The notes beneath the pieces were generated by a model. That model saw nothing but the letters and a program-made list of their open reading frames with translations. It did no database searches and had not been told where the DNA came from. The position numbers were made by a program, and so were the translations under genes. A DNA stretch of 64,000 nucleotides, taken from a virus. The stretch spans positions 1 to 64,000 of IMG/VR virus record IMGVR_UViG_3300035698_014118. One strand, 5' to 3'. This document shows positions 62,578-63,950 of the stretch, one piece after another. Every line of letters starts with the position of its first letter. Position 1 is the stretch's first letter.

Positions 62578-62724
62578 ATGAATGAAAATTATAAAAATCT
62601 GGTGCTTAAGACATACATGGACTTATATGCTAAAGGTGTAATTGCTATGAGTACTTTGATGGATTATGCTAACGAACTATATCCTGATGAACAGTATTTC
62701 AAATGGCAGGATATAGCAATATGA
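62578..62724 (+). CDS. Array mini-ORF A (48 aa, tail FKWQDIAI)
   Basis: Hand translation MNENYKNLVLKTYMDLYAKGVIAMSTLMDYANELYPDEQYFKWQDIAI. Confidence 0.65.
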   Translation: MNENYKNLVLKTYMDLYAKGVIAMSTLMDYANELYPDEQYFKWQDIAI

Positions 62725-62912
62725 CATATGAAGAAAAAGAACGAGTTATAGCTGCTGCTTTAGTAGAATCCAAGAAGAATAAATTTTCTTCAATGTATAG
62801 TTCTCTTGCTGATAAATTAGTTAGTGTCCAACCGATGCCTTTGCCAAAAGGTCTAATCTACTATATTTATCGTTCAAAAGATGAATTCTTTTGGCAGGAT
62901 ATGGAAATATGA
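62721..62912 (+). CDS. Array mini-ORF B (tail FFWQDMEI); gp23-like VSVQPMPLPKGLIYY
   Basis: ATGA-coupled; T4-like MCP motif. Confidence 0.7.
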   Translation: MTYEEKERVIAAALVESKKNKFSSMYSSLADKLVSVQPMPLPKGLIYYIYRSKDEFFWQDMEI

Positions 62913-63124
62913 CTTTACATAATAAAATGACTGAGGCCATGTATACTTCTATATACGATTTGTATCCAGAAGTATACGACAATAAACCTATGCCAGATAA
63001 AAAGAGATTTTTAGAATTATCACTATATATCTTAAAACATGTCAAATACGACAAAGAGCCTGTTTTCGATTTGGTACGGGATTATTGTTCAGGAAATTTT
63101 ATATGGATAAACATAAAAGACTAG
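62909..63124 (+). CDS. Array mini-ORF C (tail FIWINIKD)
   Basis: ATGA-coupled. Confidence 0.65.
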   Translation: MTLHNKMTEAMYTSIYDLYPEVYDNKPMPDKKRFLELSLYILKHVKYDKEPVFDLVRDYCSGNFIWINIKD

Positions 63125-63294
63125 ATGGTAATTGGGAAATACATATGATATCTGCTCGTCAAACAGGTAAAACTACTTTGATGGAAGATGTAATGAAATT
63201 AGCTTTTAAGAAAATGGGCGATTATCCTGTTTCCGGTTGGTATAAGAATGGCATTAAAAAGACGGATTTTGTATGGAAAACAATGAAAATATAA
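63103..63294 (+). CDS. Array mini-ORF D (tail FVWKTMKI); terminase Walker-A-like SARQTGKTT
   Basis: Starts at the ATG overlapping the Trp codon of the previous tail. Confidence 0.65.
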   Translation: MDKHKRLDGNWEIHMISARQTGKTTLMEDVMKLAFKKMGDYPVSGWYKNGIKKTDFVWKTMKI

Positions 63295-63422
63295 AGAAAC
63301 CTGAACTTTTACCATGGGGCGAAAAAGAAGATGCATTGATGCTATTAGCTAATCGGTTGCTGGTATATAAGTTTATGATAAAGTACCCTGATTGGTTTTT
63401 TTGGAGAGAAATGGTAATATGA
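63273..63422 (+). CDS. Array mini-ORF E (49 aa, tail FFWREMVI)
   Basis: Hand translation MENNENIKKPELLPWGEKEDALMLLANRLLVYKFMIKYPDWFFWREMVI. Confidence 0.65.
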   Translation: MENNENIKKPELLPWGEKEDALMLLANRLLVYKFMIKYPDWFFWREMVI

Positions 63423-63601
63423 ATAAACCATATACAAATGGTGTTAAAGCATCGGAGCTTCTGCCTGTCAAGTTCTTTTATGCTCCATATATACCGCTTC
63501 TAACTACTTCTACACTAAACATTGAAGACTTGAGAACAAGAACGAAATATGGATTGAAATTATTAAAAGAAACGTTCGTTTGGAGAGAAATGACGATATG
63601 A
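63419..63601 (+). CDS. Array mini-ORF F (tail FVWREMTI); gp23 C-terminal-like YAPYIPL...TKYG
   Basis: ATGA-coupled; T4-like MCP motif. Confidence 0.7.
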   Translation: MNKPYTNGVKASELLPVKFFYAPYIPLLTTSTLNIEDLRTRTKYGLKLLKETFVWREMTI

Positions 63602-63810
63602 CAGAAACTGCGTCCTATGATAAATGCTATGGCGAAGAATCTAATTATTTAAAAACTATGCTACCTAATGAAAGACATCTATTAATACAATATTGGGAAT
63701 CTCAGGCTTATAGTGGTAGCTACGTTGGAGATATTGGGTCAATGATAAGAGAAGAGCAGCTTAAGGTTCTTCGAAAAGGATTCTTTGAATGGAAAAAGAT
63801 GACGACATAA
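63598..63810 (+). CDS. Array mini-ORF G (tail FEWKKMTT)
   Basis: ATGA-coupled. Confidence 0.65.
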   Translation: MTETASYDKCYGEESNYLKTMLPNERHLLIQYWESQAYSGSYVGDIGSMIREEQLKVLRKGFFEWKKMTT

Positions 63811-63950
63811 ACCCAGTTTTTGATATTAACGTTCAACATTGGACTATCAAAAGAATAAGCAATTACGAAGAAAAAGACGGTGTTATTGGAGCTAATTACT
63901 CTGTTAGATATGAACCTATAATTTTTAAATGGAAGGATATCTCTGTATGA
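63789..63950 (+). CDS. Array mini-ORF H (53 aa, tail FKWKDISV)
   Basis: Hand translation MEKDDDINPVFDINVQHWTIKRISNYEEKDGVIGANYSVRYEPIIFKWKDISV. Confidence 0.65.
   Translation: MEKDDDINPVFDINVQHWTIKRISNYEEKDGVIGANYSVRYEPIIFKWKDISV

Follow-up and report, generated by a model that had tools for sequence, protein, structure and literature searches.

A C-terminal peptide shared by about sixty mostly unrelated mini-proteins of an uncultured salt-lake megaphage: a candidate address tag

Why should eight small genes that follow one another in a viral genome, and whose products otherwise look unrelated, all end in nearly the same eight residues? The question is raised by positions 62,578 to 63,950 of the DNA analysed here (the window), which is the first 64 kb (64,000 nucleotides) of the 78,189-bp IMG/VR record IMGVR_UViG_3300035698_014118, with a completeness of 17% according to CheckV. 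A first-pass annotation of the window had claimed an array of eight mini-proteins at this place, joined by a common C-terminal tail. We found that all eight tails are present, that they belong to a much longer series, and that the conservation follows the peptide rather than the DNA. On balance we favour an address or docking function at the peptide level, with the C-terminal tail as a short linear motif that would be read by one receptor.

All eight mini-genes lie on the plus strand. The first (62578..62724, 48 aa) ends in FKWQDIAI (62698-62724), and the second ends in FFWQDMEI (62886-62912), measuring 69 aa when started from an ATG over the Trp codon (62703..62912) and 63 aa from an ATGA start at 62721. 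They are followed by the third (62909..63124, 71 aa, ATGA start; tail FIWINIKD, 63098-63124) and the fourth (63103..63294, 63 aa; tail FVWKTMKI, 63268-63294), which contains a Walker-A-like RQTGKTT and gave no significant match to the phage's own terminase. The fifth (63273..63422, 49 aa) ends in FFWREMVI (63396-63422), and this tail contains GGAGAG 10 nt ahead of the ATG of the sixth (63419..63601, 60 aa, ATGA start; tail FVWREMTI, 63575-63601). The seventh (63598..63810, 70 aa, ATGA start) has the tail FEWKKMTT (63784-63810) and the eighth (63789..63950, 53 aa) the tail FKWKDISV (63924-63950), whose ATGA opens an untagged Nudix gene running from 63947 to 64366, past the end of the window. 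Sizes had been given as 48-71 aa; we obtained 48-77 aa, varying with the choice of start. The start arrangement is as annotated, with ATGA overlaps at 62721, 62909, 63419, 63598 and 63947, and with an ATG over the Trp codon as first in-frame ATG of three open reading frames (ORFs) at 63103, 63273 and 63789. Pairwise comparison of the eight bodies found no significant similarity, again in agreement with the annotation.

The series is not limited to these eight, however, and runs past the end of the window. Between 62,578 and 76,910 of the record, 31 plus-strand ORFs of 31-117 aa end in [FLI]-x-W-x-x-[MI]-x-x-stop, and no tail-bearing ORF was found anywhere else in it, the first 62 kb included. 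This is far above chance: in the 94 small genes of the record, F at position -8 together with W at -6 was seen 23 times against 0.057 expected, and W at -6 was present in 33 of 83 plus-strand ORFs of the last 18 kb as compared to 4 of 500 minus-strand ORFs of the whole record. A codon-level DNA pattern scan of IMG/VR yielded, among the matches listed, one other carrier, IMGVR_UViG_3300035698_019437 (147 kb, 29% complete), with 25 forward matches versus 1 in the control. This contig encodes 29 tagged ORFs of 50-152 aa, found in clusters at 2.4-10.5 kb and 32.0-37.8 kb and, for one of them, at 126.5 kb. The 60 tails of both contigs (31 + 29) give the overall logo [FL]-x-W-x-[DEN]-[MI]-x-[IVL]. 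Trp at -6 is invariant (60 of 60); -8 is mostly F (51) or L (7), -3 is either M (34) or I (26), and at the last position I (30), V (10) and L (7) make up 47 of 60. The positions between are looser, with K 20, Q 12 and R 6 at -5, D 15, E 14 and N 9 at -4, and T 19, E 14 and K 7 at -2. The stops that follow are TGA (29), TAA (22) and TAG (9), and the register is unchanged with all three.

Is it the peptide or the nucleotide repeat that is being kept? When the 31 tails of the first contig were aligned with their flanks, the first and second bases of the F, W and M/I codons carried information, as did the stop; the x codons and the sequence downstream of the stop carried none. The ratio of TTT to TTC is 35:16 in the tails versus 231:63 in the bodies, and Ile at -3 is encoded by ATA (16), ATT (6) or ATC (4), with ATG for Met. 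Because third codon positions wobble like those of the gene bodies, it is the peptide that is constrained. The homologue P0003, 55% identical and from another metagenome, has a 4-residue deletion directly upstream of the tail and still has its W six residues from the end. Together with the codon-level conservation, this deletion shows that both the peptide and its spacing from the free C-terminus are constrained. The comparison of synonymous sites called for by the first-pass annotation came out on the side of the peptide, the tails using synonymous codons about as the bodies do, and its description of variable bodies with a constant tail under peptide-level constraint was borne out. Four salt-lake sequencing runs returned identical contig pieces at 2-5x, with no usable strain variation within the tails.

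A second layer of information lies in the same nucleotides. The tail often gives the next gene its start: an ATGA overlap is present in 28 of 60 tails, an ATG follows at most 5 nt after the stop in another 12, and ATA encodes 28 of the 30 Ile residues at -1, versus 46% of Ile codons in the bodies. Purine runs within the tails, from TGG-ARR-GAN (W-[KRQ]-[DE]) or ATG-GAG (M-E), stand at a Shine-Dalgarno-like distance from the next start, and AGGAG-like sites 7-10 nt ahead of the start are present in about half of the large genes of this phage. These observations sustain the earlier claim that the tail supplies the ribosome-binding site and start of its downstream neighbour. The locus is a clean natural case of dual coding, because the same 24 nucleotides specify a selected peptide as well as the ribosome-binding site and start of the next gene.

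The distribution of the tail was followed through the relatives of the phage. Its major capsid protein (MCP; 55322..56191, plus strand, PHROG 2522) has more than 110 relatives in IMG/VR, at 69-91% identity, and because some of these sit on complete genomes of 461-548 kb, the record is a piece of a megaphage of roughly 0.5 Mb. The tail is absent around the MCP gene (±10 kb) in 80 relatives, from three complete relatives of 460-550 kb, where counts equal those of a reversed-pattern control, and from 33 contigs that bear a homologue of the radical S-adenosylmethionine (SAM) gene described below. One complete tag-less relative (G005) is syntenic over its 45-81.5 kb with the window's record and over its 90-242 kb with the second tagged contig, and at the corresponding place it has no tRNAs and no arrays. 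The first 11 kb of the second contig form another island of tRNA, endonuclease and tagged genes, and none of its nine anticodons recurs in the window's record. Because of this adjoining synteny and the non-repeating anticodons, the two tagged contigs are probably consecutive stretches of a single phage genome, or of two very closely related phages, and not independent lineages. Further afield, a profile search of 1.84 billion proteins detected two independent occurrences, on metagenome contigs of 540 and 1669 bp; one of the two homologues ends in a full tail, FQWNEMEK, and the other, P0004, in NFVWNTI, two residues short of the full tail. A scan of metagenome contigs for the tail pattern gave no array among the matches listed. 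The best reading of this distribution is that the tag is lineage-specific.

What, then, is carried on these tails? The tagged proteins are soluble, with predicted isoelectric points from 4.1 to 10.3. Small paralogue groups were recognised, one of six members at 74.6-76.9 kb, one of three to five at 70.4-73.0 kb and one of 13 on the second contig, and a profile-profile comparison of the three largest internal families gave alignments confined to the 9 tail columns, so that the bodies appear to be mostly unrelated. Residues -12 to -9 have a weak common turn-plus-aromatic pattern. AlphaFold modelled one family as a helical bundle (predicted local distance difference test score, pLDDT, 76) and a second as a beta sheet with a helix (pLDDT 59, a poor model); in both models the tail comes after a long terminal helix and has a confidence that is low or the lowest of all, at about 40 and about 54 pLDDT. 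PHROGs assigned nothing significant to 30 tagged proteins apart from a weak capsid-family match of a capsid-fragment gene, and neither Pfam-level scans, nor a fold search, nor the ESM Atlas suggested a function, matches of the latter two being at chance level. A homologue search with the protein of 70672-71007 returned no relatives.

Two bodies have a recognisable source, and it is the capsid. The body of the tagged gene at record positions 69944-70147 resembles MCP residues 241-283 (23/43 identical, E 1e-12), and that of the gene at 64893-65021 resembles MCP residues 75-94 (12/20 identical), which corresponds to 53-60% amino-acid identity. In both genes the body consists of the fragment, bordered on one side by the tail of the preceding gene and on the other by the gene's own linker and tail. 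Against the MCP gene the nucleotide identity of the fragments is 51-57%, codons are shared at 6 of 23 and 3 of 12 identical residues, and the fragments are about equally far (42-56%) from all 77 MCPs of the clade, which are themselves 69-91% alike. A closer donor was not found among 5.8 billion proteins, which is weak evidence, and a homologue search with a capsid-fragment gene returned only itself among proteins of like length and no closer donor among longer ones. Either the peptide was kept by selection while the silent sites became saturated, or the fragments would come from an unsampled, distant capsid gene. No other origin emerged from body-versus-proteome comparisons, in which matches were no higher than in reversed-sequence controls. 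Fragments of terminase, portal or helicase had been considered as further bodies, and because their matches stay at the level of these controls they are not supported.

Directly ahead of the array is a radical SAM gene (61569..62549, plus strand), coding for a protein of 326 aa with a MoaA/PqqE-like core that scores below every NCBIfam cut-off. A perfect 19-bp hairpin (62531..62571, plus strand) lies over its stop and parts it from the array. Homologues of this protein, 48-59% identical, occur in 33 viral contigs and in one complete relative (57%), with no tails within 10 kb of the gene nor, in the complete relative, anywhere in the genome. Conversely, there is no radical SAM gene on the second contig with its 29 tagged genes. 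The link to the radical SAM protein suggested in the first-pass annotation is therefore not upheld.

Several other explanations of the tail have to be set against these results. Given the second layer described above, the repeat could be a nucleotide-level translational-coupling cassette, consisting of a Shine-Dalgarno site, a spacer and a stop/start overlap, with the peptide a mere by-product. This is attractive in that the in-tail GG-ARR-GA sits 9-10 nt ahead of the overlapping ATG, that 28 of 60 tails have the ATGA and 12 more an ATG within 5 nt of the stop, that the last codon is strongly biased to ATA, and that the phage employs AGGAG-like sites. However, a Shine-Dalgarno site requires GG only, and not the T of TGG (60/60), the TT of Phe at -24/-23 or the AT of Met/Ile at -9/-8 (all 60), bases that are invariant though they lie in the would-be spacer. 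Moreover, the F-to-L and M-to-I swaps are conservative for a protein yet alter first or third bases, and the stop register is held even where the next start is 10-35 nt off or absent. We consider a pure coupling cassette quite improbable. The first-pass annotation had also proposed that the 27-nt repeat is a recombination module by which cassettes are shuffled. The mixed origins of the bodies, with capsid fragments bordered exactly by the preceding tail and their own, and the homing endonuclease genes adjoining the arrays would suit such a module. Yet about 12 of the 27 bases are conserved, exactly those fixed by the amino acids of the peptide, no two tails share identical sequence over a length sufficient for homologous exchange, and the two tagged contigs have no cassette in common. 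We accordingly consider this proposal unsupported and extremely improbable.

The remaining alternatives are at the protein level. All tagged genes could form one fast-evolving paralogue family, with the tail as the last conserved structural element of a common fold and not a portable label recognised by a partner. The tandem layout, the sub-families, the position of the tail after a C-terminal helix in two models and the weak turn-plus-aromatic pattern at -12 to -9 are what one would see in such a family. It is harder to reconcile with profiles of three families that align over the 9 tail columns only, with carrier lengths spread over 38-152 aa, with models that differ (all-helical versus beta sheet and helix) and leave the tail unpacked, and with two bodies derived from the capsid protein, and we think it unlikely. 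Finally, the adjacent radical SAM enzyme could use the tails as the core motifs of its peptide substrates, making for instance an aromatic-x-X cross-link as cyclophane-forming maturases do, and the array could be a set of precursors like those of ribosomally synthesised and post-translationally modified peptides (RiPPs). Three-residue cyclophane maturases act on an aromatic-x-X pattern, to which F-x-W and W-x-[DEN] conform, and the radical SAM gene, with its MoaA/PqqE/SPASM-like core, stops 29 nt ahead of the first tagged gene. Nevertheless, 33 contigs and one complete genome have the enzyme without tails, 29 tagged genes are on a contig without the enzyme, and the 19-bp hairpin stands between enzyme gene and array. 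In addition, no common leader exists, the bodies are unrelated, and carriers are folded proteins of up to 152 aa. A RiPP-like role is in our opinion very improbable.

Returning to the address tag, we propose that the tail, which combines F/L at -8, W at -6, M/I at -3 and I/V/L at -1 as its four hydrophobic anchors with an acidic or polar residue at -4, all in fixed register to the free carboxyl end, labels about 60 small soluble proteins of unrelated sequence. The genes of these carriers lie in an island of tRNA and homing-endonuclease genes and in another cluster, inside the virion-gene region, of one megaphage lineage. One receptor would recognise the tag with the free C-terminus and would gather, place or dispose of the whole set, while the variable bodies would bear the individual activities, two of them presenting diverged capsid-protein peptides. 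At the nucleotide layer, which the sequence itself shows, the tail codons form a Shine-Dalgarno-like site, and the last codon and stop, often ATGA, would couple the translation of the next gene. As to the receptor, the assembling head or virion, which would package the tagged proteins, is a possible but tentative candidate; a protease that recognises C-terminal degrons, be it the soluble FtsH-like one of the phage or one of the host, is slightly more tentative; and the rest of our expectation goes to some other phage or host hub. The arrays are part of the virion-gene region and share its strand, one being placed in the interval from the MCP gene to the tail genes and the other directly behind the latter. 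This makes co-expression with late genes, and hence a virion destination, plausible, which proves nothing. The T4 late-promoter box TATAAATA showed no enrichment. A complex prediction of the MCP (25-row alignment) with a tagged protein of the 70355-70678 family scored 0.00, with no controls, and weighs neither way. A bolder version of the tag, which we hold to be rather unlikely, is an adaptor library, in which many short modules on one C-terminal handle, including re-coded capsid peptides from subunit-contact regions, would let a single reader bring the targets of the modules to one place. Candidate targets would be host sensors of capsid protein, capsid subunits of competing phages, or host machines. 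They could be brought to a protease, to the prohead or into a sequestering body, and the set of modules would be expandable and private to the lineage, growing within the tRNA and homing-endonuclease island.

A number of observations weigh against an address tag, among them that no reader of it was found. No PDZ or S41 (tail-specific-protease) domain scored above cut-off in the two tagged contigs, which are both fragments, and a host protein may be the reader: PF03572 had no match, and PF13180 (PDZ_2) had one, below cut-off at 15.7 bits, in a 116-aa protein of the tail-gene module that has no other Pfam match and no relative among solved structures. The phage's own FtsH-like protease (window 6296-8362) is a predicted soluble enzyme with AAA+, ClpB D2-small and M41 peptidase domains, whose AAA module begins near residue 70, without an N-terminal region ahead of it. 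Neither this protease (44% identity) nor the radical SAM protein (57%) is an obvious specific reader, because the complete tag-less relative keeps both. The earlier idea of a docking tag or degron thus fits the anatomy, with its fixed register to the free C-terminus and a tail that is floppy in the models, and stops short at the reader; the low pLDDT of the tail may itself simply stem from shallow alignments. A source could be recognised for no more than 2 of about 58 bodies, the tagged ORFs are predictions from sequence, and there was no RNA run containing the stretch among the public runs listed. The tail is absent even from the records of relatives with an 85-91% identical MCP, and about 120 related contigs were examined with the tail in none. 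Furthermore, the two tagged contigs may be one phage, and therefore the breadth of the tag across lineages rests on the two very short extra contigs.

Some known systems appear to work alike, and the nearest of them, the capsid targeting sequence (CTS) of phage T4, the cargo-loading peptides of encapsulins and C-terminal degrons, are not of the same family. The T4 CTS, carried by IPI, IPII, IPIII and Alt, is likewise a short common peptide on otherwise unrelated, fast-evolving small phage proteins and addresses them to one destination; the genes described here sit in the virion-gene region. The CTS is N-terminal and is removed by the prohead protease, whereas our motif is made up of the last 8 residues in fixed C-terminal register, with unrelated N-termini, apart from those translated out of frame from the preceding tail. 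The CTS also has a handful of carriers as compared to about 60 here. Encapsulin cargo peptides are C-terminal hydrophobic peptides on diverse cargo, read by the inner face of an HK97-fold shell protein, and the MCP of this phage is assigned by PHROG to the HK97 fold family; however, their consensus is rich in Gly/Ser/Leu/Ile and without Trp, unlike [FL]-x-W-x-[DEN]-[MI]-x-[IVL]. C-terminal degrons include ssrA-type tails read by ClpX, FtsH or a tail-specific protease, and class II PDZ ligands end in hydrophobic-x-hydrophobic-COOH. The tail is similar in having M/I at -3 (60/60) and I/V/L at -1 (47/60) in a fixed register that was kept across an indel, and the phage encodes a soluble AAA+/M41 FtsH-like protease. 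It differs in that the motif extends five residues further upstream, with an invariant Trp, and in that no PDZ/S41 reader above cut-off was detected here and the protease is also present in the tag-less relative. As for the layout, the PeSL (promoter-early stem-loop) cassettes of T4-type hyperplastic regions also have short repeats bounding many small ORFan genes, in plastic regions rich in tRNA and homing-endonuclease genes. PeSL elements are intergenic and conserved at the DNA level, whereas this repeat is coding, its third positions wobble, and it has no stem-loop and no information after the stop.

Shared terminal address peptides are already known from a few phage and bacterial systems, among them the internal proteins of T4, the cargo of encapsulins, and degrons. 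We found no description of a C-terminal tag that is private to one lineage and borne by about 60 ORFan mini-proteins of a phage of about 0.5 Mb. Such a tag offers a handle on the "dark matter" of small phage genes, as one peptide could fish out the reader and so point to a common pathway for dozens of uncharacterised proteins together.

Besides the MCP, the window codes for a terminase, a portal and a 2010-aa head-region protein. Public sequencing runs in which the stretch was detected are metagenomes of salt lakes; they come from several studies and cover it at low depth. The tagged genes lie within a tRNA island which starts, in the window, with 10 tRNA genes at 57311..61547 (plus strand) and reaches the end of the record, with 11 further tRNAs (21 in total), at least five homing-endonuclease-like genes, a split UDP-glucose dehydrogenase gene and a Nudix gene. 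Taking the two contigs together (window 57311-61547; locus L002, i.e. record positions 60001-78189, at 5916-17490; locus L353 at 83-10757), the island has at least 30 tRNA genes with non-overlapping anticodons, and these alternate with HNH and LAGLIDADG endonuclease genes. The UDP-glucose dehydrogenase-like gene (L002, 6020-8256) is split by an endonuclease ORF, with a short C-terminal piece after it. At 8927-9727 of L002, a 266-aa ORF overlaps a predicted tRNA-Leu (9116-9189) on the same strand, which may reflect an error in either call or an interrupted tRNA. Also inside the island, window positions 59933-60829 encode a protein with a prepilin-type N-terminal methylation motif (PF07963).

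Other terminal motifs were seen in the same phages. Four untagged proteins in or beside the second tagged cluster (locus L354, 12716-13333, 18080-18463, 18743-19399 and 19399-19791) start with Met-Asn-Trp-[Tyr/Leu], which may be a shared N-terminal motif. In the complete tag-less relative G005, seven proteins end in Leu-Pro-Glu versus 0.1 expected, six of them within 10 kb (407406-417343, locus L259) and one at 344915-345184, and this end may be a terminal tag of G005's own. A second C-terminal motif is found clade-wide, dispersed and partly on larger proteins, and consists of a Lys-rich run followed by [FY]-F-x-x-I-D-[LMV]-D, for example KKKTFFDWIDMD. It is present in G005 at 103026-103292, 110727-111215, 195311-195751, 215459-215956, 312086-312568 and 326816-327703 (loci L244, L248, L249, L254 and L255), and similar ends occur in the window at 10931-11098 and 59404-59790 and in several genes of G007, such as 108049-108534 and 98938-100659. 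This motif is separate from the F-x-W tag, being found in phages with and without that tag, and it resembles the clamp-binding tail of the RB69/T4 DNA polymerase.

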